Below, piece after piece: positions 7,201 to 25,680 of a DNA stretch of 64,000 nt. The stretch spans positions 23,226 through 87,225 of the forward strand of contig CADEDC010000002.1 in assembly GCA_902825985.1 (NCBI GenBank), written 5' to 3'. Under the pieces are notes generated by a model, which was given only the letters and a program-made list of their open reading frames with translations, ran no database searches and had not been told where the DNA came from. The stretch comes from an uncultured Acidobacteriota bacterium (lineage in GTDB: Bacteria > Acidobacteriota > Vicinamibacteria > Vicinamibacterales > CAVVIG01). Made by a program: the position numbers and the translations under genes. Positions within the stretch are counted from its first letter, which is position 1, and each line of letters starts with the position of its first letter.

Positions 7201-8674
7201 GGATCAGCGGCCCGGCGTCTGGATCACCGCGCAGGGCCGCGTGCCGCTCGGCGTCCTGGTCGACGGCCAGCCGGATCTCCCGATGCAGCTGGCGATCGCG
7301 TCCAGCCAGATCGACGTCGGCATCCTCGAAGGTCTCACCGACACGGTGCGTGACGTGCGCGGCACGATGCAGCTGCAGGTCGACGTCGTCGGCACGGCGA
7401 ACGATCCGCATTTCGACGGGTTCGTCGACATCACGAACGCCGGCTTCGTCGTGAGCCGGACCGGGGCGGCCTACCAGAACACGCGGATGGCGGTGGCCCT
7501 GGCGCGCGATCAGGTCACCGTCAAGGCGTTGCATGTCGAGGACCGTCGCGGCCACGCCCTCGACGTCACCGGCAGTCTCGCGACGCACGAACTGCGCGTC
7601 GGCGACTTCGCGGTGACCGCCCGGGCCCGCCAGTTCGAGGTCATGCGCAACGAGTTCGGCACCACCGAAGTGGACGCCGACCTGGATCTGCAGGGACGCT
7701 TCGAGTCGCCGCGGCTCGCCGGGACGATTGCCATCACCGGCGGCGATCTGAACGTCGACGAGATCCTCGATCGCGCGCTGCTCCGCCCCTATGCGACCGA
7801 GGCGGCCGCGCCGGCCGCGGCAGACAGCGGCATCGAAGTCGATCCGCTGGTCGTGCTCAATCCGTGGGAGCGCCTCGGCATCGACCTGACCGTCAGCACG
7901 CGCGGCACGCTGCGCATGGTCGGCGACAACGTCCAGGTGTCCACCGGCACGCCGCTCGGCCTCGGCAACGTGAACGTCCGCGCCTACGGCGAGGTCTATC
8001 TCTACAAGGATCCGGCGCAACCGCTGTTCGTCACCGGCTCGCTCGACTCGTTGACCGGCACCTACGCGTTCCAGGGACGCCGCTTCGACCTCGATCCCGC
8101 CAGTTCGATCAACTTCCGCGGCGATCTCAACCCGGAGCTCTACGTCACCGTGCGCCGCACCATCTCGGCCGTCGAGACCCGCGTCTCGATTGTCGGTCCG
8201 CTCACCGAGCCGGAGCTGCGGCTGTCGAGCACGCCGGCGCTCGACGACTCGAACATACTGGCGCTGATCGTCTTCAACACGACGCTGAACGAGCTGAACG
8301 CAGTGCAGCAGCAGGAACTGGCGGTGCGCGCCGGCACGCTGGCCGCCGGCTTCCTCGCGACGCCACTGGTCACGGCGCTGGAACGGTCGCTCGGCCTCGA
8401 CATCCTCGAGATCGAACTCCAGCCGAGCGGCGCCGCCGGGACGACCGCATCCCCGCGCGTGACGGTCGGCGACGAGATCGCTCCCGGGCTGGTCGCGAGA
8501 TTCAGCCGGCAGTTTGGCGCGAACGACTACAGCGAAGCGACGATCGAGTACTACCTGTCGCGGCTGTTCCGCATCCGTGCGACCTTCTCGGACGCCGGCA
8601 TCGTCGCGCCGACCTCACGACTCCGCCGCGTCGAGCGGATTGGCATCGACCTGCTGGTCTTCTTCAGCTTCTGA
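4295..8674 (+). CDS. tamB: TamB / AsmA-family translocation and assembly module protein (C-terminal DUF490)
   Basis: 1459 aa. N-terminal signal anchor (LVSTLALLLAAIVIGGLAL). The long beta-rich body repeats the pattern 'L.G.L.I..G.I'. The C-terminus (GANDYSEATIEYYLSRLFRIRATFSD) resembles the TamB DUF490 tail. No tamA is adjacent. Confidence 0.8.
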   Translation: MRVTPRRIVRMLGRVLVSTLALLLAAIVIGGLALQSSWGKERIRRLIVSQAARVLNGTLDIGRIDGSILGGITLVDVRLQQDDVAVIRIARAEVDYGIRELYQGGTFIRRLRLERLHVVGAKDRAGRWNLGQLIRPRPPRPPSGAPPRLIGFDRVELVDATVEFADPLFFGAARVSSRFDDLDAVFAFELRGPAWSLSFDRASWTGRDPDLTIGRLAGGIATDATGWTFTQLRVESARSAFTVDGAVRRQPAPTVLALEVAADRFAFQEWGGMLGGLRNIAVEAAFTTHLDGPLGRLATTLDLRSTGGAVRGDFVLDSTVPGWHGSGTADVTRLDVAHWFNRPDRRSDVTGRIEFDLDLDLGRRFPRGTYRFSGRHAAYIGYEADNVIAAGTLTATEAVIAAATATAYGADVRVRSGAIAIDAPYRYRFAGRAAGLDLRRVPREVPVPHVDSTLVLDYDVHGQFAPGYIIGEATFGSSEFLGAQIAAGAFGSIDTSATPVHYSGEGTMTGISLRRFGDGLDVAWMREARYDGIIAGRFHVDATGSGAAGLVLDGGGRLSQAHIFQGRLHDADVTVHLEDGSLRGSYDGAFERINPARATGDDRLVASLTGAGRATFAVAGLLTRAVALADYSVAATATLRDSVIRMVDVDRAAVEFGLADEVLTLTTLDLRGPLLEATARGVVPLDDVRSSDVDFDLLRGDLALVRQSAGGRLAGAVTSQGHLSGPLSELRVTGDARISRLTAAGLEILTGGAAYDATLRPAHLEQTVARVSGTVGPLTISGQAINEISGNAALDGQRLTIDLRGTRAGGLNGSVGMVLRVSTAARQIDVSALDVVVQDVAWRAAVATPPGLRWDDDGVTIRELILTDVATAAQRVTISGEWRSGTTSGLRVRAAAVDIDNVSGAFAQPPRYGGRLNADAVIRPASGAGNAIVTGTFTVTDGRIRRLAYDRLAATIGYDDGQFAVDARLDQRPGVWITAQGRVPLGVLVDGQPDLPMQLAIASSQIDVGILEGLTDTVRDVRGTMQLQVDVVGTANDPHFDGFVDITNAGFVVSRTGAAYQNTRMAVALARDQVTVKALHVEDRRGHALDVTGSLATHELRVGDFAVTARARQFEVMRNEFGTTEVDADLDLQGRFESPRLAGTIAITGGDLNVDEILDRALLRPYATEAAAPAAADSGIEVDPLVVLNPWERLGIDLTVSTRGTLRMVGDNVQVSTGTPLGLGNVNVRAYGEVYLYKDPAQPLFVTGSLDSLTGTYAFQGRRFDLDPASSINFRGDLNPELYVTVRRTISAVETRVSIVGPLTEPELRLSSTPALDDSNILALIVFNTTLNELNAVQQQELAVRAGTLAAGFLATPLVTALERSLGLDILEIELQPSGAAGTTASPRVTVGDEIAPGLVARFSRQFGANDYSEATIEYYLSRLFRIRATFSDAGIVAPTSRLRRVERIGIDLLVFFSF

Positions 8675-10244: not shown

Positions 10245-10625
10245 TCAGGGCGCGAGCAGGGCGCGGACGGTCTCGAGAAAGCGCTTCGTCGTGAACGGCT
10301 TGCCGATGAACTGCGCGGCGGCGACCGCGTCGTGCGCCAGACGGTCCAGCGACGGATCGCCGGACATCAGCAGGATCGCGAGGCCGGGATGGCCGGCGGC
10401 GAGTCGGCGAGCGAGTTCCGGGCCGCTCACGCCGGGCAGACACACGTCGCAGACGAGCAGGGCGACCGCCGACGTCTGCGTCTCGACGATCGACTCTGCC
10501 TCCTCCGCCGACGCCGCGGTCACCACGTCGTAGCCGTTGGTCTGCAGCACCCGTGCCAGCAGGTCGCGCACCGTCTGGTCGTCGTCGATCAGCAGGATCG
10601 TCATGACGGGGTGCGTCCCGCGCAT
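10245..10625 (-). CDS. Single-domain response regulator (CheY-like receiver)
   Basis: 126 aa. ILLIDDDQTVRD...LLVCDVCLPGVSG...LLMSG...GKP. The true start may instead be the Met at 10604 (MTILLIDDD). Confidence 0.85.
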   Translation of the reverse strand: MRGTHPVMTILLIDDDQTVRDLLARVLQTNGYDVVTAASAEEAESIVETQTSAVALLVCDVCLPGVSGPELARRLAAGHPGLAILLMSGDPSLDRLAHDAVAAAQFIGKPFTTKRFLETVRALLAP

Positions 10626-10656: not shown

Positions 10657-11106
10657 CTATTGCGGGCGCAGTAAGGTCACGATGACCGGCTCTTCGTCGG
10701 ATTCGAAGGCCTGTCGGGCGACGACCTGCGTTCCCGACATCCGCACATGGTAATCGCGCCCCTCGATCACGGTCGGCAGCGACAGGTAACAACCATCATC
10801 CGAGAACAGGGCCTTGAGGTTGCCTCCGATCATGTTCGCGAGCTCGCCGACGGCATCCTGGACGTCCTGCGGATTGTCGTCCTCCTCTTCGAGACCGAAC
10901 ATGACCTGGGCGGCGCGTCGTGCAGCCGTGCGCGAGCACTGGAAGACCAGGGTGCCGGTCCAGCGTCCCGTGATGTGCACGTGCCCCTCGATCGTGCCGC
11001 CGGTCGGCGCCGGCGGCACCGCCGGGCTCGGGTGTAACGGCAGTCCGAGCGTCTGCGACCACACCGCCTCGCTCAACTCCGTGACGTAGCGTTCCATCTC
11101 TTCCAT
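10657..11106 (-). CDS. cheX: CheX-type CheY-P phosphatase (CheC/CheX/FliY family)
   Basis: 149 aa. Carries the CXY active-site motif D-x3-E-x2-N (DAVGELAN) followed by ...LSLP. Sits inside the che operon. Confidence 0.8.
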   Translation of the reverse strand: MEEMERYVTELSEAVWSQTLGLPLHPSPAVPPAPTGGTIEGHVHITGRWTGTLVFQCSRTAARRAAQVMFGLEEEDDNPQDVQDAVGELANMIGGNLKALFSDDGCYLSLPTVIEGRDYHVRMSGTQVVARQAFESDEEPVIVTLLRPQ

Positions 11107-11120
11107 GTCGTCCTCTCAGC

Positions 11121-11948
11121 TTACGTCCTGGTCCCGGTCCCGGTTGGCAGATAGCAGCCGGCGCGATTCACCGGCATGCGCACGTACCGTTCGTCGAGAT
11201 TCATCGTCGATTCGGCAGCGCCCAGGAACAGATAGCCGTCGGGACGCAGCAGGTCGTAGATCTTGCCGAGGATGCGCTGCTTGGCCGCCACGTCGAAGTA
11301 GATCATCACGTTGCGGATGAACACGATGTCGCACTGCGGGATGCGCGACCAGGCGCCGTTCAGGTTCATCTCGTGGAAGGTCACCATCGATCGGATGTCG
11401 TCCTTCAGCTGCCACTCGAGTCCCTGCTTGTCGAAATAGCGGAGCAACAGCTTCGCCGGCATGCCGCGGTTGACCTCGAGCTGCGAGTAGCGGCCGGCGC
11501 GCGCCCGGTCCAGCGCCTTTCGGCAGATGTCGGTGGCGACCTGCTCGATCCGCCAGTCCTTGAGCTCGGGGAAGTGTTCGCGGAGGAGGATTGAGACCGA
11601 GTACGGCTCCTGCCCGGTCGAACTGGCGGCATACCAGATGGTCAGCCGCTTCGACAGCCGCCGGGCGTTGATCAACTTCGGCAGCAGGTCGGTGCGCAGC
11701 AGCTCGAACGGATCGATGTCGCGGAAGAACGTCGTCTCGTTCGTGGTCATCGCGTCGACGACCTTGCGGTGCAGCTCGGTCTGCCGGCTGCCCCGCAGCG
11801 TCTGCACGAGTGCGTCGATGGAGGCCAGGCCTTCACTGCGCACGATGGGTGCGAGCCGCGACTCGACGAGGTATTCCTTGCCGGCTTCGATGACGATGCC
11901 CGCTTCGTTCCGAACGAATTCGCGGACGAATTCGAATGAGGTGTCCAT
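11121..11948 (-). CDS. cheR: Chemotaxis protein methyltransferase CheR
   Basis: 275 aa. TNETTFFRD, IWYAASSTGQEPYS and IFIRNVMIYFD are canonical CheR motifs. Confidence 0.95.
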   Translation of the reverse strand: MDTSFEFVREFVRNEAGIVIEAGKEYLVESRLAPIVRSEGLASIDALVQTLRGSRQTELHRKVVDAMTTNETTFFRDIDPFELLRTDLLPKLINARRLSKRLTIWYAASSTGQEPYSVSILLREHFPELKDWRIEQVATDICRKALDRARAGRYSQLEVNRGMPAKLLLRYFDKQGLEWQLKDDIRSMVTFHEMNLNGAWSRIPQCDIVFIRNVMIYFDVAAKQRILGKIYDLLRPDGYLFLGAAESTMNLDERYVRMPVNRAGCYLPTGTGTRT

Positions 11949-11963
11949 GTAATCCGTTCCCGT

Positions 11964-13103
11964 TTATCGCGCAACGCCCGCAGGCGATCCTGCGGGGCGT
12001 GCGCACCTGCGCATCAACTCGGTGGCGATGTCGGAGAGTGGCAGCACGCGCTCCGCGAGTCCGGCGCGGGCAACGAAGCCCGGCATCCCCCAGACGACGC
12101 TCGAGGCTTCGTCCTGGACGATCACCCGCCCGCCCGCCGCCCGGATGTCTTCGGCACCGCGCAGGCCGTCCTGGCCCATCCCGGTGAGGACCACGGCGAG
12201 CGCCCGGGCGCCGTAGATCTGGCTGACCGATCGGAACAGCGGATCGACGGCCGGCCGGCACGAGTTCTCGGGCGGCTGCTGGTTCAGGGCCGTGACGATC
12301 TGCGTGCCGCGCCGCTGCAACACGAGATGGTGGTTGCCGGGCGCGACGTAGACGACGCCGGGCGCCAGCACTTCGCCGCCGGCCGCCTCGACGACGGTCA
12401 GGGCCGACTGCGCGTTCAGGCGTTCGGCCAGCAGCCGCGTGAACATCGGCGGCATGTGCTGTACGAGCACGATCGGAACCGCCAGCGTGGCGGCCAGTTG
12501 CGGCAGCACCACCGCGAGGGCGTTCGGCCCGCCGGTCGAAACGCCGATGGCGATGATCTCGACGGATTGGCTGCCGGCGGGCGGCGGACCGGCGGCGGCG
12601 TCTCGCCTGACGACGGCAGACGGCGGCGGCACCGGCCGCACCGTGGCGGACGGGCGCGCCGCATCGGTGGCAGGCGACGGGCTGGTGCCCAGAACGCCAC
12701 GACACAGCGCCTTCACCTTCGGGATCAGCTCCTCGCGGATCCGCTGCTGCGCGAGCGCGACGCTGCCGACGTTCGCCGGCTTGGTGACGTAGTCCGAGGC
12801 GCCGAGCGACAGCGCCTCGAGCGTCTCGGCGGCGCCGCGTTCGGTCAGCGTGCTGAACATGATGACCGGCAGGTTCGGATGGGTCTGCCGGAGCGCGCGC
12901 AGCGTCTCGAGGCCGTTCAACTCCGGCATCTCGACATCGAGCGTCACGACGTCGGGGTTGACCTGAGTGAGCTTCTGCAGGCCGATGCGGCCATTCGCGG
13001 CCGTGCCGACGACCTCGATGTCGGGGTCCTCCGACAGGACGTCGCTGACCATGCGACGGACGACCACGGCGTCGTCGACGACCAGAGCACGAATCTTCTT
13101 CAT
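11964..13103 (-). CDS. cheB: Chemotaxis response regulator protein-glutamate methylesterase CheB
   Basis: 379 aa. N-terminal receiver (ALVVDDAVVVRR...VTLDVEMPELNG), a Pro/Ala linker, and an esterase domain (IAIGVSTGGP, VQHMPP, TGMGQDG). Confidence 0.95.
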   Translation of the reverse strand: MKKIRALVVDDAVVVRRMVSDVLSEDPDIEVVGTAANGRIGLQKLTQVNPDVVTLDVEMPELNGLETLRALRQTHPNLPVIMFSTLTERGAAETLEALSLGASDYVTKPANVGSVALAQQRIREELIPKVKALCRGVLGTSPSPATDAARPSATVRPVPPPSAVVRRDAAAGPPPAGSQSVEIIAIGVSTGGPNALAVVLPQLAATLAVPIVLVQHMPPMFTRLLAERLNAQSALTVVEAAGGEVLAPGVVYVAPGNHHLVLQRRGTQIVTALNQQPPENSCRPAVDPLFRSVSQIYGARALAVVLTGMGQDGLRGAEDIRAAGGRVIVQDEASSVVWGMPGFVARAGLAERVLPLSDIATELMRRCARPAGSPAGVAR

Positions 13104-13134: not shown

Positions 13135-13500
13135 TCAGAATCCGAGGAGCCTGAGCTTGTCGGCGATCACGTCCTTCGTGAATGGCTTCATCACGTACTC
13201 GTTGGCGCCGGCGTCGAGAGCGCGCTGCATGTGTGCCATCTCGGTTTCCGTGGTCACCATCATCAGCCGGACGTCGGCGAGCGCCGCCTCGCGGCGGACC
13301 GCCTCGACCATCTCGATGCCGGTCATTTCCGGCATGTTCCAGTCCACGAGCGCCAGGCTGGTGTCAGGATGGCTCTGCAGGTAGGCGAGCCCCTCCTTGC
13401 CGTGCTGCGCCTGCGCGACTTCCGCGAACCCGTGCTCGCGCAGGGCCTGCGACAGGATCGACCGCATCGCGCGCGAATCATCGACAACCAGTGCCTTCAT
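13135..13500 (-). CDS. cheY: Chemotaxis response regulator CheY
   Basis: 121 aa. ALVVDDSRAMR...LVDWNMPEMTG...MVTTE...YVMKPF. Confidence 0.95.
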   Translation of the reverse strand: MKALVVDDSRAMRSILSQALREHGFAEVAQAQHGKEGLAYLQSHPDTSLALVDWNMPEMTGIEMVEAVRREAALADVRLMMVTTETEMAHMQRALDAGANEYVMKPFTKDVIADKLRLLGF

Positions 13501-13512
13501 CTTGTCCTCTCG

Positions 13513-14760
13513 TCAACCGTGAGTGCCGATCGGCGCTGTCGGCCCGCCCCGCCGCCCGCCGGCCCATTCCCGCAACTCGGCGGCGTGCCCCTTCAGCCAG
13601 CCGCCCGTCCACTTCCCGATCAGCCGCTCGACATCGTCCTCGGCGCCGGGATAGCCACGCGCGACCAGGTCGGCCGCCAGTCCGCGCCGGGCGGCGGCGC
13701 CGCCGGCGAACAGCGTCTGCAACAACCCTTCAATCGGCCGCTGCGCCATCCACTGGTGCCAGTCGGCCATCTCCTGGTCGACGAGCCGCAGCACGGCGGG
13801 CACCGCACGCTCACGGCGGGACAGGGCCTCGTCCTGTCGGGTGACCAGGTCGTCGACGGTCACGCAGGGCATGCCGGCCGGCGGCTCGATGTTGCGCGGC
13901 ACGCCGGCGTCGATCAGCAGCGGCTGCCGGCCCGCGAGGCCTTCACCCCGAACAATCGGCAGGCGGGCCGACGTCGCACAGACGACGACGTCCGCCCGCT
14001 GCAATGCCTCGTCCAACCGGTCCCACTCGCCGGTCGCCGCCCCGCACATCCGGGCCAGGGCCGCCGCCCGCTCGCCGGTCCGATTCACTACCGTCAGCGT
14101 GCCGATGCGCCGTTTCGTGATCTGCCGGGCAATGTCGCGCGCCGTGGCGCCGGCGCCGACGAGCAGCGTCGCCGGGCTGCCGCTGACCCGCTCGTGGATG
14201 ACGGTCGCAATCACGGCGCCGAGGCTCGCCTCGCCGCGGCCGATGTCGGTCGTCCGGCGCGCCCGGTGCCCGATCTTGAACGCCTGCTGGAACGACCGGC
14301 TGAGCACGGCGCCGAGCGTGCCGGCGGCGCTGGCCAGCTGCAGGGCCTCCTTCATCTGGCGGACGATGAATCCGTCGCCGAGGATGAGCGAGGCGGTGCC
14401 GGTGGCCACCCGGAACAGGTGGCGTACGGCGTCGTCGTCGATCGCCCGCCGCAGCCGGCACTGCGGCGAGTGCGGTCCGACACCCGGCCGATCCGCCCTG
14501 ACGACGTCCAGTACCGCATCGGCGGCGGCAAGGCTGCCGACGACGTAGAACTCGGTGCGATTGCAGGTGGAGACGATCGCCGCCTCCTGGAGGCCCGGGA
14601 TCCAGCGCGCCCGCTCGAGCAGTCCGCGCGCCTGGGACGCGTCGTAGCTGAGGCGCTCGCGCTCGGCGAGCGACGCCCACGAATAGTCGACGCCGAACAG
14701 GACGACATGCGCGTCCGGTCCGGCGAGCGGGCCGCGAACCGATGGGGAGAGGTGCACCAC
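13513..14760 (-). CDS. hemA: Glutamyl-tRNA reductase (heme/tetrapyrrole biosynthesis), embedded in the che operon
   Basis: 415 aa with a GTG start. Catalytic-Cys motif STCNRTEFY, NADPH-binding LLVGAGATARDIA, and the N-terminal pattern ERERLS typical of HemA. Lies 12 nt upstream of cheY and 50 nt downstream of the globin-MCP gene. Confidence 0.85.
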   Translation of the reverse strand: MVHLSPSVRGPLAGPDAHVVLFGVDYSWASLAERERLSYDASQARGLLERARWIPGLQEAAIVSTCNRTEFYVVGSLAAADAVLDVVRADRPGVGPHSPQCRLRRAIDDDAVRHLFRVATGTASLILGDGFIVRQMKEALQLASAAGTLGAVLSRSFQQAFKIGHRARRTTDIGRGEASLGAVIATVIHERVSGSPATLLVGAGATARDIARQITKRRIGTLTVVNRTGERAAALARMCGAATGEWDRLDEALQRADVVVCATSARLPIVRGEGLAGRQPLLIDAGVPRNIEPPAGMPCVTVDDLVTRQDEALSRRERAVPAVLRLVDQEMADWHQWMAQRPIEGLLQTLFAGGAAARRGLAADLVARGYPGAEDDVERLIGKWTGGWLKGHAAELREWAGGRRGGPTAPIGTHG

Positions 14761-14772
14761 GATGGTTGCATC

Positions 14773-14802
14773 CCGGGATGCCCGGCCCCCCGGACATCCC
14801 GG
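14773..14802 (-). promoter_or_regulatory. GC-rich intercistronic stem-loop between the globin-MCP gene and hemA
   Basis: CCGGGATG (14773-14780) pairs with CATCCCGG (14795-14802), giving 8 bp. An inner CCGG/CCGG 4-bp stem (14782-85/14790-93) adds to it. CATCCCGG also occurs as a direct copy at 14769-14776. No U-tract follows. Confidence 0.35.
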
Positions 14803-14810
14803 TGTGACGG

Positions 14811-17420
14811 TTAGTAGGTGAACCGGGCGATGAGCGACTGCAGCTCGTTCGCCATCTTGGACAGCTGGGCCGCGGCCTTCTGCGTGTCGTTCGCGCCGTC
14901 GGTGGTGCTGCGCGCCGCCTGCGCCACGCCGGTGATGTTCTGGGCGATCTCGGAACTGCCCTTTGCCGCTTCGGTGACGTTGCGGCCGATCTCGTTGGTG
15001 GTCGCGGTCTGTTCCTCCACCGCGCTCGCGATGGTGTTCGAGATGTCGTTGATCTGGTTGATGATGGCGCTGATCTGGCCAATCGCCTCGACGGCGCCCT
15101 TCGTGTCGGTCTGAATCGCCTCGATCTTCTGGCTGATGTCCTCGGTCGCCTTGGCCGTCTCCTTGGCCAGTTCCTTGACCTCGTTGGCGACGACCGCGAA
15201 CCCCTTGCCGGCTTCGCCGGCGCGGGCCGCCTCGATCGTGGCGTTCAGCGCCAGCAGGTTCGTCTGCTGCGCGATGGAGGTGATCACCTTGATGACCTTG
15301 CCAATCTCGGCCGAGCTCTCGCCCAGTTTGGCAACCGTGCTATTGGTGCTCTCGGCCACCTTGACCGCCGCGGTCGCGACCTTCGCCGCTTCGTTCGCGT
15401 TCTTGGCGATCTCCTTGATGGAGGCGCTCATCTCCTCGGTCCCGGTGGCGACCGTCTGGACGTTCTTGCTGACCTCCTCCGAAGCAGCCGACACGACGTT
15501 GGCCTGGGCCGACGTCTCTTCGGCATTGGCGCCCATCTGCGTGCTGACGGCCGACAGCTCTTCGGACGAGCTCGCGAGGGCGTTGGCGTTCTCGCCAATC
15601 GCCGAGATGCTGCGGCGCAGGTCCGTCAGGAAGGTCCCCAGGCCGGTCGCCATCTGGCCGACGGCATCGTCGCCGCTGATCGTCATCGTCTGCGTCAGGT
15701 CACCCTTGGTCGCGGCGTTGACGACGCCGAGGATGGCGTCGACCTTGCGCTTCAGCTCGGCCGTCGCCTGGCGTTCACGCTCGGCGGCGTCGGCGACCTG
15801 ATGCTCCTGCTCCATCTTGGCGCGCACCTTGTCCGTGATGTCGACGGCGTACTTGGCGACCTTGTAGGGACGTCCGTTCGCATCGAGCACCGGATTGTAC
15901 GAGGCCTGGATCCACACCTCGCGTCCGCCCTTGCCGAGGCGCTTGTAGTCGGCGGCCTGGAACTCGCCGCGGTTCAGCGCCGCCCAGAAGTCGCGGTACT
16001 CGCTGCTCGTCTTGTACGACGGCTCGACGAACATGCTGTGGTGCTGCCCCTTGATTTCGTCGAGCGTGTAGCCGAGGGTCTTGCAGAAGTTCTCGTTCGC
16101 GTAGTTGATGGTACCGTCCATCGTGAACTCGATGACCGCCTGCGTCCGGCTGATCGCCGCCAGCTGCGCGGTGAAGTCGGCGTTGGTCGCCTCCAGGCGC
16201 AGCGTCTCGGTGACGACGTCCCAGTTGACCATGCCGCCCATGTAGGTGCCCTGGTCGTCATAGGTGGCCGACACGAGCAGGCTCAGCACCTCAGGCCCGA
16301 CCTTGATGTTGGCCTGGTGCGGCAGGTCCTTCGGGTCGCCGAGCAGGCGGCGCTGGTGCGACGGGTTCTTGTGGAAGACATCGATGGTCTGGCCGATCAT
16401 GTCGTCGACCTTGACCGGCAGGTACTGCTCCAGCGTCTTCAGGGTCTTCTTCGACGCCGGATTCATGTACTGAATCTTGAGATCGAGGTCGGCGAACATG
16501 ATGTTGCTCGGCGAATTCTCGGTCATCGACGTCACGCGCGCCATCTCGGTGCGCTGCCGCCGTTCGGCGGTGATGTCCGTCCAGTTGACGATGTAGCCGA
16601 GCAGCTGGCGCTGGCCGTCCTGAATCGCGTTGATGTGGGTGCGCAGCGTCACCTTGCCGAACGAGAACTCGGCGTCCCGCGGCAGCGTGCCGGGCGTCCG
16701 CAGGATCTTCTCGATGCGCGCCGGGTCGCGATGGAAGCGGTGGATGGAGCCGCCCAGCAGGTCGGCGACCGACACCCCGAACGCCTTCTTGATCTCGTCG
16801 GCGAATCCCGACGCCGTCTGCGCCGCCATCGGGTTGAGGTAGACGAGGTTCAGGTCCGTATCCGCAATGAACACGTTGGCCCGCAGCGAGTCGAGCGAGG
16901 CGCGCATGCCCTCGAGACTCTCCGTGATGACCGGTTCCTCGACCGCGGGCTGCGTCTGCGCCACGGCCACCTTCAAGCGACCATTCGACATGCCAATCTC
17001 CTTCTTCGAGCGGTGTCCGCCGGCAGGTGCCGGCGACACGGTGACGATATCGCCGGCCAGCGGGGCGACGGCCGCAATGACTTCGTTGACAATCGATCTC
17101 GGCACGCGCAGCTCGGCGAGCGCCGCCGCCAGGTGCCCGGCGGTGCGATCGAACTGCGCCCGGGTGATGCGCATGCCGGCGTGGGCGGACTTCATGTCCT
17201 TCCCCTTGTAGACACCGGGGCCGCCGAGGGCGGTGATGAAGAAGGCGTTCTGTCGCGCCTTCAGGTGCGCCATGTTCGTCCTGGCGAAGAACGGCGCGAG
17301 CTCGCCGTCGGCGAGGACCTTCTGGTAGAAGAGATCGACGGCGGCCTTGATGGCCGGTACGCCGCCGACGCGTTCGAAAAGGGTTGCGGACTGAACCGCC
17401 GCCGCCGACTGTCTCGCCAT
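14811..17420 (-). CDS. Soluble chemoreceptor: truncated hemoglobin (group I-like) + 3 PAS + HAMP-like + MCP signalling domain
   Basis: 869 aa with no TM segment. The N-terminus [70 protein letters not shown] is a trHb fold signature (B10 Tyr, proximal His). Three PAS-like repeats follow ([45 protein letters not shown]). The C-terminal hairpin tip reads [37 protein letters not shown]. Confidence 0.9.
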
Positions 17421-17441: not shown

Positions 17442-17915
17442 TTAGGCCGCGTCGACGTGACGGGCGTTGATATCCACCGTTCGCTCCACATCCAGGATGA
17501 GCAGGAGCCGGGCGGGCAGCTTGTACACGCCGGTCACGAGGCCATCCACTTTCGTTCGCACGGTCTCGGGCGCCTGCTCGAACTGCGCCGCGTTCACCTC
17601 GACCACATCGTCGATTTCGTCCACCAGCAGACTGACGGCACCGTCCGGCGTCCGGACGACGACGTTCATCGGCAACTCGCCGTCGGGCCGCGGCGTCAGG
17701 CCGAGCCGGGAGCGGAGGTCGAGCGCGGTCACGATCTGGCCGCGCAGGTTGATGAGCCCGCGGACGACGGCCGGCGCCAGCGGCACCGGCGTCATCTCCT
17801 GATGGCGGATGACCTCCTGCACGCTCAGGACCGCGATGCCGAAGTAGAGGCCGTCGAGAAAGAAGGTCGCGTACTGCGCGGTGCCGGAGTCTGCGGCTGT
17901 GGTTGTGGTTGTCAT
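17442..17915 (-). CDS. cheW: Chemotaxis coupling protein CheW
   Basis: 157 aa. YATFFLDGLYFGIAVLSVQEV...VRGLINLRGQIV is the typical CheW domain. Confidence 0.95.
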   Translation of the reverse strand: MTTTTTAADSGTAQYATFFLDGLYFGIAVLSVQEVIRHQEMTPVPLAPAVVRGLINLRGQIVTALDLRSRLGLTPRPDGELPMNVVVRTPDGAVSLLVDEIDDVVEVNAAQFEQAPETVRTKVDGLVTGVYKLPARLLLILDVERTVDINARHVDAA

Positions 17916-17931: not shown

Positions 17932-20181
17932 TTACGCCGCTGCCGGGGCGACCGCGGCCGGATCGGCGGCGGCGACGACCGCCGCCACGTCCACCAGATC
18001 GGTGACCCGCTGCTGCAGCACCACCGAACCGACGACGCCGGGCCGCGACACCCGCCGCTGCACGTCGATCCGCTCGCTGACGATGTCGAGAATCTGGCTC
18101 ACCACGAGACCGACGCTGCGGCCACCGTCGGCGTAGACGACGACCTGTCGCATGTCGGCGTCGTTGGTCGGGCGGCCCGCGAAGACCATGCCGAGGTCGA
18201 CGAGCGGCATGATCTCGCCGCGATACTGCACCACGTCCTGGTCACCCGAGCGTTCGATCGCCGAGACCGCGAATTCCTCGAGACGCGCCACCAGGTTGAG
18301 CGGGATCGCCATGCGGTCCTTCTCCCCCACCCGGCACACCAGGAGCGTCTGCAGGTCGTGCGCCGCATCGTCACGTACCTCGCTCGCGTCGCCGTCGTTC
18401 AGCCGGCGATCGCGGACCTCGGCGACGACCCGGGCCCGCTGGGCGATCCCGAGCACGTCGAGAATCAGTGCGACGCGGCCGTCGCCCATGATGGTGGCGC
18501 CGGCGAACGACTCGATCCCCTTCAGTTGCTTGCCGAGCGGCTTGACGACGATCTCCTCGGTGTCGTGGATCGCGTCGACGACCAACCCGAACTGCCGGTC
18601 GTCGGCTTTCAGCACGACGATGTTCACGACGTCGGCGTTGGTGCCGGCACCCGGGCGGTGGAAGGCTTCGTCGAGATGGACGAGCGGCAGCAGGTTGCCG
18701 CGCAAGCGGTAGAACGGCGCGCCCTGGATCCGCTCGATGCCGGCGCGCGCCTGCGTCCCTTCCAGCCGCACGAGTTCCAGCAGGCTGACCTGCGGAATCG
18801 CGTAGCGCTCGCCGTCGCCGCCGGCCACCATCAGCGCCGGGATGATCGCGAGGGTGAGCGGGATCTTGATCTTGAGCGTCGTCCCTTCGCCCATCTTGCT
18901 CTGGATGTCGACCTGTCCGCCGATCTTCTCGATGTTGGTCTTGACGACATCCATGCCGACGCCGCGGCCCGAGATGTTGGAGATCTTCTCGGCGGTCGAG
19001 AAGCCCGGCAGGAACACCAGACGCAGCACCTCGTGGTCGGACATGCGGCTCGCCTGGTCGGCCGAGATGAGGCCGCGCTGGGTCGCCTTGGTGCGCAACC
19101 GCGCCGGGTCGATGCCGGCACCGTCGTCGGAGATCTCGATATTGATCTGACCGCCTTCGTGGAAGGCGCGCAGGCGGATCAGCCCTTCCGCCGGCTTGCC
19201 GCGGAGCATCCGTGCCTCGGGCGACTCGACGCCGTGATCGACCGAGTTGCGGACGACGTGGGTCAGCGGATCCTTGATCGCCTCGATGATCGTCTTGTCG
19301 AGCTCCGTCTCCTTCCCCTCCATCTCGATGCGCACCTGCTTCTGGCAGAGCACGGCGAGGTCACGGACGATGCGCGGGAACTTGCTCCAGACGTTGCCGA
19401 TCGGCTGCATGCGTGTCTTCATCACGCCTTCCTGCAGCTCGGAGGTCACCAGGTTCAGCCGCTGCGTCGCGCCGACGAAGCTGTTGTCGGTCTGTGTCGC
19501 GGTGAACTGGAGGATCTGGTTGCGCGCCAGCACCAGTTCGCCGACCAGGTTCATCAGCTTGTCGAGCAGCACGACGTCGATGCGCAGCGACGAGTCGGCG
19601 GCGGCCCCGCGCCGGTCGTCCCCGGTGCGGCGGTCCTCGCCGGTCCGACGTTCGTCGGACGCGTCGTGCGCCGGCGCCGCCGGCTCGGCGTCCGCCGTCG
19701 CCGCGACGGGCGCGGCGGCATCGGCGGACGACGCAACCGCCGCCGGTGCAGCGGTCGCGTCGGCGGGGGCCCGCGGCGCAGACGTCGGCGGCTTGGCGAG
19801 CCCGCCCTCGTTGAGGCGCTTCAGCTCGGCGACCAATGCCCCGTAGTCACCGTCGCCCTCGACGCCTGTCTGCTCGACCTGCGCCAGGATCTGGCGGATG
19901 GCGTCCACCATGGCGAGCAGTCCGGTCGTGATCTCGGCGTTGAGCAGCAACTCGCCGTCGCGCATCTTCGACAGCAGGCTCTCACCCACGTGACTGATCG
20001 CTTCGAGCTTGTTGAAGGCGAGGAAGCCACAGGTGCCTTTGATGGTGTGGATGGTCCGGAACACGCTCGCGAGCGTGTCCGCGTTCCGCGGATCTTTTTC
20101 GAGGTCGACGAGCTCTTTGTCGAGCCGATCGAGGTTCTCGTAGCTCTCGATCAGGAACTCTTTGACCAGGTCTTCACTCAT
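17932..20181 (-). CDS. cheA: Chemotaxis histidine kinase CheA
   Basis: 749 aa. P1 Hpt (FRTIHTIKGTCGFL), a P/A-rich linker, dimerisation and HATPase regions (HVVRNSVDHG, DDGAGID, GRGVGMDVV), and a C-terminal CheW-like P5 domain. Confidence 0.95.
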   Translation of the reverse strand: MSEDLVKEFLIESYENLDRLDKELVDLEKDPRNADTLASVFRTIHTIKGTCGFLAFNKLEAISHVGESLLSKMRDGELLLNAEITTGLLAMVDAIRQILAQVEQTGVEGDGDYGALVAELKRLNEGGLAKPPTSAPRAPADATAAPAAVASSADAAAPVAATADAEPAAPAHDASDERRTGEDRRTGDDRRGAAADSSLRIDVVLLDKLMNLVGELVLARNQILQFTATQTDNSFVGATQRLNLVTSELQEGVMKTRMQPIGNVWSKFPRIVRDLAVLCQKQVRIEMEGKETELDKTIIEAIKDPLTHVVRNSVDHGVESPEARMLRGKPAEGLIRLRAFHEGGQINIEISDDGAGIDPARLRTKATQRGLISADQASRMSDHEVLRLVFLPGFSTAEKISNISGRGVGMDVVKTNIEKIGGQVDIQSKMGEGTTLKIKIPLTLAIIPALMVAGGDGERYAIPQVSLLELVRLEGTQARAGIERIQGAPFYRLRGNLLPLVHLDEAFHRPGAGTNADVVNIVVLKADDRQFGLVVDAIHDTEEIVVKPLGKQLKGIESFAGATIMGDGRVALILDVLGIAQRARVVAEVRDRRLNDGDASEVRDDAAHDLQTLLVCRVGEKDRMAIPLNLVARLEEFAVSAIERSGDQDVVQYRGEIMPLVDLGMVFAGRPTNDADMRQVVVYADGGRSVGLVVSQILDIVSERIDVQRRVSRPGVVGSVVLQQRVTDLVDVAAVVAAADPAAVAPAAA

Positions 20182-20462: not shown

Positions 20463-21785
20463 TCAAGCGACGGCGTCCTGCGATCTGGCCGTTCCGGCCA
20501 CGTCGGCACTGTCCCCGAGGAGGTCGCTGACCTCGCACGACATGACGATGTCGGCGCTCAACGGCGATACCTTGAGCTTGACGACCATGCCGTCGTCGGC
20601 CAGCCGGTCGGCATCCCAGACCGCCGGCTCGCTCTCGAGCTGCGGCAGTGAGCAGTCACTGGTCACCGCCCGCTCGTCGAGATGGGCGTGCATGCGGCCG
20701 CTGACCAGATTGGCGAGCTCAGCGGCCGTCGACAGGTAGTCCTCGACGACGACGTCGGCCGCTTCCATGCCCAGCATGCGGGCGGCGATCGCGGTCATCG
20801 ACGGCACCGTCGCGCGGATCCCGAGCTTCACGACGTAGCGGTTCTGGATGGTGATGTCGGAGATCGCCGCGATCATCGGCGCCGCCTCGGCGGCCTGTTC
20901 GAGCGGCTCGATCTCGGCGTCGAGCATCATGCCGAACACCTGCCGCGCGGCGCTGGTCACGCCCTGCGCGAGGTCGCCGGTCAGGCTGGTCACGGCGGCC
21001 AGCGGGCCCGGCACCCGCGTGAAACGCCGCAGCTCGGTCTTGAACTTCGCCGGGATGTACGAGCGGAGCATCACGTCGTCGAACAGCGCACCGCGCGGCT
21101 CGCCGGCGTCGGACGGATCGACGATGCCGACGATGCGGACCGGCTGCGACCCGGCCATGGCGCGCAGCTTCGGGACCAGCAGGTCGGCGCCCAGGATGCC
21201 GAGCTCCGAGCCGAGGAAGACGAGGCGGACCGGCGACTGCCGGAAGTGGGCCAGCGCCGCGGCGCCGGACCCGACCTCCATGATCGGTCCCTGCGTCGAA
21301 CCCTGGCTGACGAAGAAGTGGCGGTAGTCCAGACTGCCGTCGACGAGCAGCGCCGGCATGTCGGGACCCAGGCGGATCGACTGCACGTTGCCGTTGCGGA
21401 CCGACTTGCTCCGCGTCGACAGGTTGCTGCGCAGGCGCTCGAGCGCCGCCAGCACCTTCTCGGTGCGCGGCGGCTTGAGGATGTAGCCCTCGATGCCGAG
21501 GCGGACCAGGCGCACGACGATGTCCTCGCGGCGCTCCTTGGAGAGCATGAGCACCGGCAGCGTCTTCAGACGCGACGAGGAACGGATCGCCTCGAGCACC
21601 TCGACGCCGTCGATGAGCGGCATCTCGACGTCGAGGACGATGAGGTCGGCCTCCTCCTCGTCGAGCCGGCGCAGGGCCTCGACGCCGTCGACGCACTCGG
21701 CCGTCGTGCAGCCGAGGTTCTGTGTCAGCAGCCGCTTGATGACGAAGCGTGTCGACGCATCGTCGTCGCAGATCAGCACGTGCAT
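20463..21785 (-). CDS. Response regulator fusion: REC + degenerate REC-like middle domain + C-terminal CheX-like phosphatase domain
   Basis: 440 aa. N-terminal receiver (VLICDDDASTRF...LIVLDVEMPLIDG...MLSK...LKP). The middle region resembles a receiver (PALLVDGSLDYRH...LVFLGSELG) but lacks an obvious acidic pocket. The C-terminus carries the CXY motif S-x3-E-x2-N (STAAELAN) followed by ...SLP. Confidence 0.8.
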   Translation of the reverse strand: MHVLICDDDASTRFVIKRLLTQNLGCTTAECVDGVEALRRLDEEEADLIVLDVEMPLIDGVEVLEAIRSSSRLKTLPVLMLSKERREDIVVRLVRLGIEGYILKPPRTEKVLAALERLRSNLSTRSKSVRNGNVQSIRLGPDMPALLVDGSLDYRHFFVSQGSTQGPIMEVGSGAAALAHFRQSPVRLVFLGSELGILGADLLVPKLRAMAGSQPVRIVGIVDPSDAGEPRGALFDDVMLRSYIPAKFKTELRRFTRVPGPLAAVTSLTGDLAQGVTSAARQVFGMMLDAEIEPLEQAAEAAPMIAAISDITIQNRYVVKLGIRATVPSMTAIAARMLGMEAADVVVEDYLSTAAELANLVSGRMHAHLDERAVTSDCSLPQLESEPAVWDADRLADDGMVVKLKVSPLSADIVMSCEVSDLLGDSADVAGTARSQDAVA

Positions 21786-22469: not shown

Positions 22470-22855
22470 CCCGGTCCGCCGGCGGATGACGGGTGCCGGC
22501 TGATCGTCCGCACCCACGCCGCGAGCTCGGTCAACAGCGCATCGGCGGTCACCCGGAAGTCGGGCCGCAGGGCGGCGACCCGCCGGGCGTCGCCGCCGCG
22601 CGCCCCGAGCTCGAGCGCCTCGGTGACGCCGCACAACCGGAGCGCGCAGACGTTGCCCACCGCCCCCTTGATCGTGTGGGCGACACGGGCCACCTGGGCG
22701 AGGTCGCCGGCCTCCGCCGCCTGCTCGAGGCTGTGGACGTAGCGTGGCAGATCGGCCTGGACGAGGCCGATGAGTTCCTGAATCGCCTCGAGGTCGTTGT
22801 CATACCAGCGACACACCTCCTCGGGGTCAAACGCCAGTTGGCTGTCTTCCGTCAT
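22457..22855 (-). CDS. Histidine phosphotransfer (Hpt) protein
   Basis: Trimmed from ORF 22457..22963; the start ATG at 22855 overlaps the upstream kinase stop (ATGA). 132 aa with the Hpt motif VAHTIKGAVGNVCA. Confidence 0.8.
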   Translation of the reverse strand: MTEDSQLAFDPEEVCRWYDNDLEAIQELIGLVQADLPRYVHSLEQAAEAGDLAQVARVAHTIKGAVGNVCALRLCGVTEALELGARGGDARRVAALRPDFRVTADALLTELAAWVRTISRHPSSAGGPGCQP

Positions 22856-25680
22856 GCTGCGCCCTCCTGCGCCGCCGTCGACCCGATGCGTGCCAAGGCG
22901 GTCGCCAGCGCCTCGGACTGCAACGGCTTGGACAGATAGTCCGACATGCCGGCGTCGAGGCATTTTTCACGGTCCCCGCGCATGGCATGGGCCGTCATCG
23001 CGATAATCGGCAGTTGGCGGCAATCCGGGAGCAGCCGAATCCGCCGGGTTGCCTCGTAGCCGTCCATCTTCGGCATCTGGCAGTCCATGAACACCGCGTC
23101 GTAGCGGTGTGTCCCGACCCGGGCGAGCGCCTCCTCGCCGTTCTCGACGATCTCGACGCTGCACCCGAGCTTCTCGAGAAAGCGGCGCGCGACCTTCTGG
23201 TTGATCGTGTTGTCCTCGGCGACGAGGACGTGCAGGCCGGCGACGAGCGGCGCGGCGGCGCCGGCAGACTCGACGGCGACCCTGGCGCGGGCCGCCTCGA
23301 CGAGGGGCAGCTCGAACCAGAACGTCGAGCCTTCGCCGACCGTGCTGAACACGCCGATCTCGCCGCCCATCAGCTCGACCAGCTGCCGGCAGATCGTCAG
23401 GCCGAGGCCGCTGCCGCCGTACTTGCGGGTTGTCGAGCTGTCGGCCTGCGTGAACTTCTCGAAGATGGCGTCGAGCTTCTCGGCGGCGATCCCGATTCCC
23501 TGATCGGCGACGGCAAACCGCAGGCGCGGCCGTTCGCCGGCGGGCGTCAGCGCGCTGACGGCAATCGACACCATGCCCTGATGGGTGAACTTGATGGCGT
23601 TGTCGGCCAGGTTGATGAGCACCTGGCGGATCCGCGTCGGGTCGCTGATGATGCTGGACGGCACGTCCGACGCGACGTTCATCACCAGCGCCAGCCCCTT
23701 CTTCTGCGCCTTGACGGTGACCGGCTCGAGCGCCGACGTCAGCTCCTTGCGCAGCTCGAACGACACCGGGTCGATGGTCAGCTTGCCGGCCTCGATCTTC
23801 GACAGGTCGAGCACGTCGTTGACGATGGTCAGCAACGCCTCGGCCGACGAGCGGATGCCCTCGCTGAGGTCACGCTGCTCGCCGCTGAGCGGTGTATCGA
23901 GGAGCAACGTCGTGAGGCCGATGACGCCGTTGATCGGCGTCCGCACCTCGTGGCTCATGTTGGCGACGAACTCGGATTTCAGCCGCGACGCCGCGAGCGC
24001 CTCCTGGCCGGCGCGGACCAGCGCATCCGACAGTTCACGCTGCTCCGTGATGTCGCGCAAGGTGCCCGACGTGCCGGTGCCGCGCCCGTCGTCGGTCATG
24101 CGGGCGTGCACCTCGATCCAGCGCACCGCACTCCCGCGGGTGCGGCAGCGGACTTCGTAGCGCGACAGCGCCTTGTCGCGCCGCAGCAGCGGCAGGAACC
24201 GCTTCTCGTGCAGGTCGCGGTCGTCCTCGTGCACGAAGTCGATGATGTTCCGGCCGAGGCTGTCGTCCGGATCGAAGCCGGTGATTTCGGTCCACGCCGG
24301 ATTGAGGTAGGTCCAGCGGCCGTCCTGATCGGTCTCGAACAGCACGTCCTGCAGGCTCTCGACGACGCGGCGGAAGCGCTGCTCGCTGGCCAGGATCGAC
24401 TGTTCGTCGCGCAGCCGTTCCGAGATGTCACGGGCGATCAGCGCGTAGAACTCGACGCTGCCCTGGTAGCCGACCTGCGCCAGCACCAGCCGCGACACCG
24501 GCGTCAGCGTGCCGTCGCGATGCTGGATGTGGGTTTCGCACTGGCTGGTGCCGCCGTTGTCGCGCGCCCGCTCCAGCGCCTCGCGGAACTCGCGCGCCTG
24601 GCCGTCGCTGCCGAGCAGCGCCTCGAGCGGCGTGCCGAGCACCGGCGTGTTCACCGCCAGCCCGCACATCGTGCGGGCCGCCCGATTCATGTAGGTCGGC
24701 AGGCCGTCCCGGTCGAAGAACGCGACGAAATCGGGCGAGCTGTCGAGCACGCGGGCCATCCGGCGGTTCACGCCCTCGATGCGGACGCGGTCGGAGATGT
24801 CGATCCCGTGCGCCATGACCAGCGGGCCATCGGGCGACTCGAAGACGAAGTTCTGATAGGCGAGCGCGATGCGGCGCCCGCCGGGGCCCTGGAGGGTGAG
24901 CAGCCCCTGGAAGTGGCCGTTCTGTTCGGCGAGCTGCAGGTAGCGCTCGTAGCCCTCCCAGTACTCGGGCGGCACGAACTCGCGGAGATTCGCGCCGAGC
25001 ATGTCGGCCCGCGCGCGACCGAGCGCCCGGCAGCCGGCGCCGTTGATCATGCGGATGGTGCCGTCGAGTTCGTGATAGAGAATGACGCCCTGCGCGTTCT
25101 CCACCAGCTCGCGGTAGTGCTGCTCGCTGCGCGCCAGCTCGCCGTGGGCCGCCGCGACGTCGTGCAGCTCCAGCCGCAGGCGAGCCGCCGCCTGTCGGAG
25201 ATCGATCTGCGACAGCACCTGCCGCGCCAGCCGCTGCAGCGCGTCCAGCTGGTCGGCCGTCAGCCGGCGCGGGACCCGATCGATCACGCAGAGGGTGCCG
25301 AGCGCATGCCCGTCCACCCCGACCAGCGGCACCCCGGCGTAGGCGCGGATGTGCGGCTCGCCGGTCACCAGCGGATTGTCGGCGAAGCGCGGGTCCAGCC
25401 GGGCATCCTCGACCAACATCGGGACATCCGGCGTGAGGATCGCGTGCGAACAGAAGGCGACGTCCGGCGGTGCCCCGGCCGCCGCCAGGCCGTGCGACGA
25501 CTGGCACCACTGGCGGTCCGCGCCGACCAGGCTGATCAGGGCGATCGGCGCGCCACAGATCTGGGCGGCCAGACGGGTGAGGTCGTCGAACGCCGGTTCG
25601 GGCGGCGTGTCGAGGATGCCGAGGCGGCGCAGTGCCGCCAGCCGTTCGGGCTCGCCGGTCGTCGTGGCGGGCGGGATCAT
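22852..25680 (-). CDS. GAF-PAS-PAS-PAS hybrid sensor histidine kinase with C-terminal receiver
   Basis: 942 aa. N-terminal GAF-like region (LGILDTPPEPAFDDLTRLAAQICGAPIALISL). PAS repeats. H-box FVANMSHEVRTPINGVIG. HATPase motifs (DNAIKFT, DQGIGI, GGSGLGL). Receiver (VLVAEDNTINQKV...VFMDCQMPKMDG...KP). Confidence 0.9.
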   Translation of the reverse strand: MIPPATTTGEPERLAALRRLGILDTPPEPAFDDLTRLAAQICGAPIALISLVGADRQWCQSSHGLAAAGAPPDVAFCSHAILTPDVPMLVEDARLDPRFADNPLVTGEPHIRAYAGVPLVGVDGHALGTLCVIDRVPRRLTADQLDALQRLARQVLSQIDLRQAAARLRLELHDVAAAHGELARSEQHYRELVENAQGVILYHELDGTIRMINGAGCRALGRARADMLGANLREFVPPEYWEGYERYLQLAEQNGHFQGLLTLQGPGGRRIALAYQNFVFESPDGPLVMAHGIDISDRVRIEGVNRRMARVLDSSPDFVAFFDRDGLPTYMNRAARTMCGLAVNTPVLGTPLEALLGSDGQAREFREALERARDNGGTSQCETHIQHRDGTLTPVSRLVLAQVGYQGSVEFYALIARDISERLRDEQSILASEQRFRRVVESLQDVLFETDQDGRWTYLNPAWTEITGFDPDDSLGRNIIDFVHEDDRDLHEKRFLPLLRRDKALSRYEVRCRTRGSAVRWIEVHARMTDDGRGTGTSGTLRDITEQRELSDALVRAGQEALAASRLKSEFVANMSHEVRTPINGVIGLTTLLLDTPLSGEQRDLSEGIRSSAEALLTIVNDVLDLSKIEAGKLTIDPVSFELRKELTSALEPVTVKAQKKGLALVMNVASDVPSSIISDPTRIRQVLINLADNAIKFTHQGMVSIAVSALTPAGERPRLRFAVADQGIGIAAEKLDAIFEKFTQADSSTTRKYGGSGLGLTICRQLVELMGGEIGVFSTVGEGSTFWFELPLVEAARARVAVESAGAAAPLVAGLHVLVAEDNTINQKVARRFLEKLGCSVEIVENGEEALARVGTHRYDAVFMDCQMPKMDGYEATRRIRLLPDCRQLPIIAMTAHAMRGDREKCLDAGMSDYLSKPLQSEALATALARIGSTAAQEGAA

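Follow-up and report, generated by a model that had tools for sequence, protein, structure and literature searches.

The accessory proteins of chemotaxis (CheC, CheD, CheV, CheX and CheZ) form a short and well-studied list that contains no heme-synthesis enzyme. Isoenzymes of the first tetrapyrrole step that serve special demands are known from other contexts, such as HEMA1 and HEMA2 in plants and the 5-aminolevulinate synthases encoded by hemA and hemT in Rhodobacter sphaeroides. Glutamyl-tRNA reductase (GluTR), encoded by hemA, is the controlling step of the C5 pathway, and both heme binding and heme-triggered proteolysis have been documented for canonical HemA (PMC6399207). Here we describe a hemA-like gene situated inside a chemotaxis (che) operon on a 64-kb stretch of DNA, hereafter the window, from an uncultured Acidobacteriota bacterium (contig CADEDC010000002.1, positions 23,226 to 87,225). 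The gene is a member of a distinct, monophyletic family of GluTR paralogues and not an ordinary hemA. A GluTR branch inside chemotaxis operons has apparently not been described so far, and a full-text literature search found no paper describing a GluTR or hemA gene in such operons.

The gene is located as follows:
13513..14760, minus strand: GluTR-like gene (che-linked HemA paralogue) with a GTG start, encoding 415 amino acids with the Pfam domains GlutR_N and Shikimate_DH

The protein matches GlutR_N at 3.5e-33 and Shikimate_DH at 5.1e-21. It carries the catalytic-Cys motif VSTCNRTEFY (residues 63-72, with the nucleophilic Cys of the S-T-C-N-R-T-E domain) and the NADPH-binding Rossmann motifs, GAGATA at 202-207 followed by VVNRT at 224-228; the Cys and GAGATA motifs had been reported in a sequence-only reading of this DNA. 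By sequence, the protein comes closest among solved structures to GluTR from Methanopyrus kandleri (1GPJ, 4.5e-35) and from Arabidopsis, and an AF2 model of the protein (pLDDT 90.6) found 1GPJ as its best PDB match in Foldseek, over 416 columns (full length) with a TM score of 0.66-0.68. The score against TIGR01035, the NCBI equivalog model for hemA, is 224.7 bits and passes the cut-off of 209.55 narrowly; relatives from the same clade score 192-282 bits, two of them under the cut-off, and a canonical HemA from Vicinamibacteria (P0046) scores 393. No match to the Pfam GlutR_dimer domain (PF00745) was obtained for the window protein at E<=0.001. The idea that the dimerisation domain is missing was nevertheless rejected in this form, as both profile-profile and structural comparison show a shortened and divergent homologue. 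Alignment of the clade profile with the canonical profile in hhalign covers 396 columns at a probability of 100%, C-terminal helices included, and the C-terminus aligns to the canonical dimerisation domain as far as the LLHxPxTxLR helix; the corresponding part of the AF2 model consists of a 66-residue helix and one more helix.

In a homologue search, about 50 proteins at 36-58% identity, mostly without a PF00745 match, formed a first group, with ordinary HemAs next at 33-37%; one protein of this group comes from a metagenome-assembled genome (MAG) of the Vicinamibacterales. In neighbour-joining trees the che-linked sequences form one clade of 33 sequences on a long stem (bootstrap 99/100), to which the canonical HemAs of Acidobacteriota, Verrucomicrobiota and Vicinamibacteria do not belong. 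A profile search over 1.84 billion cluster representatives (50%-identity clusters) gave 8832 GluTR-like matches at E<=1e-30, and roughly 87 of the best 150 of these carry at least four of the five signature residues of the clade. The che-linked GluTR family is real but small, with roughly 90 clusters at 50% identity, and its members occur in Acidobacteriota (Vicinamibacterales, Sulfotelmatobacter) and Verrucomicrobiota (Opitutaceae). The gene, which had at first been taken for an ordinary hemA wedged into the operon, thus belongs to a separate paralogous clade.

By Pfam, the gene order on the minus strand of the window is cheA, cheW, a methyl-accepting chemotaxis protein (MCP) gene, the hemA-like gene, cheY, cheB, cheR and cheX:
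17932..20181, minus strand: cheA (Pfam Hpt, H-kinase_dim, HATPase_c and CheW)
17442..17915, minus strand: cheW (Pfam CheW)
14811..17420, minus strand: soluble chemoreceptor MCP, 869 amino acids (Pfam and PDB matches)
14761..14810, minus strand: intercistronic spacer of 50 nt between mcp and the hemA-like gene (read directly from the sequence)
13135..13500, minus strand: cheY, single-domain response regulator (Pfam Response_reg, 4e-27)
11964..13103, minus strand: cheB (Pfam CheB_methylest and Response_reg)
11121..11948, minus strand: cheR (Pfam CheR and CheR_N)
10657..11106, minus strand: cheX (Pfam CheX, 8e-20)

This agrees with the cheA-W-mcp-Y-B-R-X operon of the sequence-only reading, as do the spacings that it gave: the stop codon of the MCP gene ends at 14811, leaving 50 nt before the hemA-like gene, and the ATG of cheY at 13500 follows 12 nt after the hemA-like stop codon.

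Synteny was compared for every clade member on a usable contig with readable flanks, which gave 15 distinct loci, the window included (the others being L001, L002, L004, L005/L010, L006, L008, L011, L090, L092, L094, L097, L098, L099 and L177). The paralogue lies in a che operon in all 15, that is, in 14 beyond the window:
L001, L002, L004, L094 and L097: cheA-cheW-globin/PAS-MCP, then the paralogue, then cheY-cheB-cheR(-cheX)
L098: che cluster of the same type, the MCP immediately upstream having a globin and a heme PAS (gene content known only through tblastn and motif scans)
L092: PAS-MCP, paralogue, cheY and further genes
L005/L010 (Opitutaceae), L008 and L090: variant arrangements in which the paralogue has as neighbours a stand-alone globin, an ABC1 kinase and a conserved protein of 247-250 aa
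L006: cheR-cheD-cheB, paralogue and flagellar genes; the cluster also has a ParA-like gene and an MCP with a sensor globin
L011: Ca. Sulfotelmatobacter, che-linked
L099: che-linked
L177: che-linked, with a neighbouring MCP of the 4HB type

Stop and start codons of the paralogue and cheY overlap in L002, L004 and L092, where the window has its 12-nt gap. As a control, among the matches listed in two collection scans, none of about 150 other hemA loci (147 LGE-type hemA loci and a few non-clade "GD" loci of Bacteroidota/Ignavibacteria, L159 among them) had at least two che genes nearby. The mcp-hemA-cheY synteny, which had been proposed for checking in relatives, is therefore strongly upheld. 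L159, tried as a clade member without che genes, was rejected, because it is a canonical hemA-hemD-hemB-hemL-hemN operon that falls outside the clade.

Could a housekeeping hemA have come to lie in a che operon by chance, or could the gene be a decaying duplicate? The TIGR01035 cut-off is indeed passed and the 64-kb window holds no second hemA. However, the synteny is kept in two phyla at identities of 36-58%, the bootstrap given above sets the clade apart, and a canonical hem-operon hemA occurs in the same class: P0046, the best canonical match, lies in a ccsA-hemA-hemC-hemD-hemB-hemL-hemE-hemN operon on a 4.7-Mb contig, and its relative at 89% identity is named Vicinamibacteria. Because of this canonical gene in the same class, carriers of the che-linked gene very likely have a normal hemA as well. 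An intact open reading frame, a conserved active site and native codon usage speak against decay, the GC content at third codon positions being 0.90, similar to that of the neighbouring genes. Since the paralogue is in a che operon at every readable clade locus and none of the roughly 150 canonical hemA loci is, chance insertion is excluded, and the explanation as a whole is largely refuted and scarcely credible.

The neighbouring receptor is well suited to bind heme. Its architecture comprises a truncated haemoglobin (trHbN), an Aer2-type heme PAS, a second PAS and the MCP signalling domain. The N-terminus is a group-I truncated haemoglobin (PF01152) that was aligned with Mycobacterium tuberculosis HbN (PDB HbN match 1e-26) and keeps the heme-ligand residues Tyr-B10, Gln-E11 and the proximal His. 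Residues ~291-422 form the Aer2-type heme PAS (PDB match 1e-15), in which the His of DVFHKNP and the distal Trp align to 3VOL/4HI4. The label of heme receptor, given earlier from the letters of the DNA, is justified by the heme residues kept in both the globin and the PAS. No Pfam match to a transmembrane or ligand-binding domain was found in the MCP, which points to a soluble receptor, and its best NCBIfam match is Vibrio Aer2. A further PAS at residues 434-542 resembles FAD-binding PAS domains (MmoS 3EWK, 1e-12; Aer 8DIK, 1.5e-9), which would give the receptor a possible total of three redox or gas cofactors.

The Aer2-type DVFHK.P heme PAS is present in the receptor of 13 of the 14 loci with a complete MCP gene, and globins, either fused or stand-alone, occur in most clade loci. 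A strict rule that the paralogue always lies beside a heme receptor was rejected, the 4HB MCP of L177 being without a Cys/His heme motif. The paralogue was in a che operon at 15 of 15 loci and had a heme-based oxygen receptor as its neighbour in nearly all of them, usually a soluble one with a heme PAS and a truncated globin encoded immediately upstream. This suggests that the chemosensory system brings along a heme-pathway enzyme of its own.

Canonical HemAs have 68 alignment columns with a conservation of 90% or more, and among these the clade retains the catalytic and cofactor core, namely G23, R34, E59, T65, C66, N67, R68, T69, E70, Y72, H114, G121, S124, G128, Q135, R168, T171, G202, G204, N226, R227, D284, P288, R289 and R316. 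Within the clade T65, C66, R68, E70, S124, G128, Q135, G202, G204, R227, D284, P288 and R289 are conserved at 100% and N67 and H114 at no less than 96%. The catalytic Cys is present in all but one of the roughly 90 full-length clade representatives, so that the earlier description of the gene product as apparently catalytic is borne out at the sequence level. The exception, the clade-like representative P0319, has Ser in its place, either as a natural C->S variant or through degeneration of the copy. G181, K216, W246, W334 and H392 are clade-specific and absent from canonical enzymes.

The substrate pocket gives a more mixed picture. In E. coli we take the glutamate pocket to consist of T49, R52, E54, H99, S109, E114 and Q116. 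In the window protein the equivalents T65, R68, E70, H114 and S124 are unchanged, and D129 and F131 differ. One possible explanation is that the family has kept its thioester and NADPH chemistry and reduces a substrate other than Glu-tRNA(Glu), with the aldehyde serving as a signal or entering another cofactor pathway. In line with this, the residue equivalent to E. coli E114 (position 129) is Asp throughout the clade, the position of Q116 is F, H or M in the subclade of the window gene, the universal His26 and the basic Lys165/Arg166 pair, which could be tRNA contacts, are lost, and an ABC1/UbiB-type kinase and the 247-250-aa protein adjoin the gene in one subclade, a hint of a small separate pathway. 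On the other hand, the substrate-carboxylate Arg R68 is kept together with E70, H114 and S124, basal clade members have Q at the 116 position, and Asp at 129 is also found in the bona fide hem-operon HemA L159 and in HemAs of Bacteroidota, so that the exchange is compatible with GluTR activity. Overall, an altered substrate is decidedly unlikely. The LGD versus LGE motif was also considered as a diagnostic for the clade or for a new substrate and was rejected, since the HemAs of Bacteroidota/Ignavibacteria and L159 have LGD too.

The spacer between the MCP gene and the paralogue contains one conspicuous structure:
14773..14802, minus strand: GC-rich stem-loop with a 13-bp stem, a GGGG loop and one G.U pair, 8 nt after the MCP stop codon and without a U-tract

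The hairpin, which had been read as 8+4 bp, is one continuous stem, and the 12-nt palindrome reported beside it, CATCCCGGGATG at 14780-14769, is present but is no separate element, consisting of the 3' arm of the hairpin plus 4 nt. The stem is the longest uninterrupted one on either strand of the window; by itself it is only mildly unusual, because stems of at least 11 bp are about as common in the window as in resampled sequence. The fold of the 91-nt context has z = -1.96. No terminator was called at 14773-14802 in the intrinsic-terminator test, the tail after the stem being GAUGCAACC, with no U-tract. In L001, L002, L004, L098 and L099 the stop codon of the MCP gene is likewise followed by a GC-rich stem-loop, unrelated to that of the window, and in L097 by a weaker one. 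The stem in L098 (~7950-7995) has 17 bp, and that in L099 (~1000-1030) has 12 bp followed by TTTT, like an ordinary intrinsic terminator.

It had been suggested that the hairpin mediates heme-dependent regulation of the downstream che genes. A specific regulatory RNA, for instance a heme- or tetrapyrrole-responsive attenuator of the hemA-like gene and the downstream che genes, would fit a strong stem placed exactly between mcp and the paralogue, a weak Shine-Dalgarno-like GGGA within its 3' arm, and stem-loops at the same position in relatives. The comparison argues against such a role. The sequence of the spacer is not conserved (mean column identity 35%, with two invariant columns, one of them within the stop codon), the stem-loops of relatives are unrelated and one is U-tailed, and a post-MCP stem-loop is weak or absent in L008, L011 and L094, while L092 has no spacer. 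Occlusion of the Shine-Dalgarno sequence is not conserved either, with free AGGGAG/GGAGGAGG in L001 and L004. An Rfam scan of the region returned only bxd_2, a Drosophila lncRNA model, at 21.8 bits against a gathering score of 80 bits, which is a chance match, and the simple perfect hairpin has no architecture resembling a ligand pocket. A specific regulatory RNA is thus very improbable. The position of the hairpin carries more weight than its strength, and the post-mcp stem-loop is most likely a generic partial terminator or 3'-end stabiliser.

Taken together, we tentatively favour the reading that the paralogue acts as a functional GluTR isoenzyme, is expressed together with the heme receptor array and raises the flux of C5 precursor, although the chance of this is somewhat short of even. 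Catalysis is indicated because the active-site residues are conserved, and a link to heme because heme receptors are in constant company with the gene (13 of 14 complete MCPs); with GluTR as the controlling step, a co-transcribed isoenzyme is therefore the simplest account. The paralogue would remain an NADPH-dependent glutamyl-tRNA reductase and, transcribed with the receptor, would add flux at the rate-controlling first C5 step while the heme-receptor array is assembled. The housekeeping enzymes HemL, HemB and those that follow would then turn its product into heme for the receptor. The loss of invariants away from the Cys motif, the divergent C-terminus and the fast evolution could fit an isoenzyme freed from the heme feedback and partner contacts of the housekeeping enzyme, and the stem-loop may keep the level of mcp mRNA above that of the downstream genes and would not act as a heme-responsive switch. 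Coupled cofactor supply would be the most economical reading, and it is weakened by the non-heme MCP of L177.

Several observations weigh against an isoenzyme for heme supply. Neither hemL nor any other hem gene travels with the paralogue, and the MCP of L177 (6336-7964) is a transmembrane 4HB/HAMP receptor without a heme domain and without Cys. His26 of the "NH" motif, conserved at 99% in canonical HemA, is F or Y in 80% of the clade (Tyr in the window), and Lys165, conserved at 100% in canonical HemA, is retained by only 47% of the clade (His in the window); in the pocket, the window protein has Phe (F131) where the E. coli enzyme has Q116. The C-terminal domain is wholly missing in some clade members (P0054, 338 aa). 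In addition, the window and L002 paralogues share only 49% identity, compared with 75-82% for CheA, CheW, MCP, CheY, CheB and CheR, which is unusual for a flux-controlling enzyme; the hemA-like gene diverges fastest in the operon, CheX excepted. Other models stay alive because of the lost invariants, the rapid divergence, the lack of a co-travelling hem gene and the non-heme MCP of L177.

It is possible, if on the unlikely side, that the paralogue is a moonlighting accessory subunit, that is, a physical partner of the chemosensory array in which catalysis is secondary or only a sensing step. Such a subunit could load heme into the receptor or report the status of heme, NADPH or Glu-tRNA to the receptor or CheA. 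This would accord with a strict linkage to the che core and not to any hem gene, a linkage that holds even with the non-heme MCP of L177, with translational coupling to cheY at several loci, with the loss of His26 and Lys165, and with a remodelled or truncated C-terminal domain. The surface evolves fast, yet the clade-specific K216, W246, W334 and H392 are conserved, and canonical GluTR itself binds heme and is subject to heme-triggered proteolysis (PMC6399207). However, the near-perfect conservation of the Cys, TCNRTE and GxGxxA/NRT speaks of a catalytic need beyond that of a scaffold, and no clade-wide extra Cys or CP-type heme motif was seen. A more specific version, in which Aer2-type arrays have gained the GluTR paralogue as a new accessory component that binds the receptor or kinase for heme loading or exchange or for status input to CheA, is rather doubtful.

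Two further response regulator genes border the che cluster of the window:
20463..21785, minus strand: response regulator of 440 amino acids with a CheX-like C-terminus, upstream of cheA (Pfam Response_reg 2.6e-25, CheX 1.2e-4)
10245..10625, minus strand: extra single-domain response regulator, downstream of cheX (Pfam Response_reg 3e-19)

The former is a possible opening gene of the cluster; its CheX-like region is weak, and the protein may be a CheY-CheX fusion phosphatase. Two neighbouring hybrid histidine kinases (22852-26873, minus strand), one with a GAF-PAS-HisKA-HATPase-REC and one with a HisKA-HATPase-REC make-up, lie directly upstream of the che cluster. The cluster is a motility-linked system, because motA and genes of the flagellin-glycosylation type are close by. 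An MptE-like gene is found among glycosyltransferases at 32032-33243 of the window.

A few features recur in the other loci. The 247-250-aa protein, which has no Pfam match (L005 7255-8004, L008 10870-11622, L090 7261-8004), is 57-66% identical between loci, the paralogue there being more divergent; it always adjoins the paralogue and the ABC1/UbiB-type kinase and does not occur in the window. L006 has a ParA/MinD-like ATPase (1987-2742) inside its paralogue-bearing che cluster, reminiscent of the partitioning ATPases that belong to cytoplasmic chemoreceptor arrays. A BNR_2-repeat gene lies shortly 3' of the che clusters in L001 (12174-13722), L090 (11188-12757) and L098 (13826-14518), and in L001 and L090 an MptE-like gene comes next; an MptE-like query had no match in L098.

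Should the paralogue prove to be an active GluTR, it would show that sensory arrays can be equipped with a control point of their own for the supply of cofactor. As a binding partner, it would provide heme gas sensors like Aer2, about whose physiological role there is still debate, with a new input or maturation factor, and an accessory role would couple tetrapyrrole metabolism directly with taxis signalling. The finding also matters in practice. As scores lie around the TIGR01035 cut-off, annotation pipelines label most clade proteins "glutamyl-tRNA reductase", so that a hemA other than the housekeeping one may be counted when metabolism is reconstructed from MAGs of Acidobacteriota and Verrucomicrobiota.

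Compared with canonical GluTR (HemA/GtrR; TIGR01035; PF05201, PF01488 and PF00745; 1GPJ, 4N7R), the paralogue aligns over its full length with the three-domain fold and shares the TCNRTE nucleophile motif, the H, S and Q of the HLFRV...GLDS...GQ block and the GxGxxA/NRT site. It differs in forming a separate clade with lower TIGR01035 scores, in a shortened C-terminal domain without a significant PF00745 match, in the loss of the His26 and Lys165 invariants, in the gain of the clade-specific G181, K216, W246, W334 and H392, and in its location, which at the loci examined is in che operons and never in hem operons. The plant HEMA1/HEMA2 and Rhodobacter hemA/hemT pairs resemble it, on general knowledge, as second copies of a flux-controlling enzyme with an expression context of their own; these are regulated metabolic duplicates, and we know of none embedded in a signal-transduction operon.

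Among chemosensory systems, the Aer2/Che2 cluster of Pseudomonas aeruginosa and Vibrio cholerae is similar in having a soluble receptor with an Aer2-type PAS that carries the heme His and distal Trp, and its own cheA, cheW, cheY, cheB and cheR in one operon. The window receptor adds an N-terminal truncated haemoglobin and a further PAS, and the window cluster has CheX, whereas the Pseudomonas Che2 cluster has CheD. To our knowledge, none of the Che2 clusters described so far contains a gene comparable to the embedded GluTR paralogue. The receptor also recalls HemAT-type globin-coupled sensors in the fusion of a globin to the MCP signalling domain, although its globin is a 2-on-2 truncated haemoglobin (PF01152, HbN-like) and not a protoglobin-related sensor globin. 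The new element of the locus, set beside these systems, is a GluTR subfamily with a conserved signalling context.

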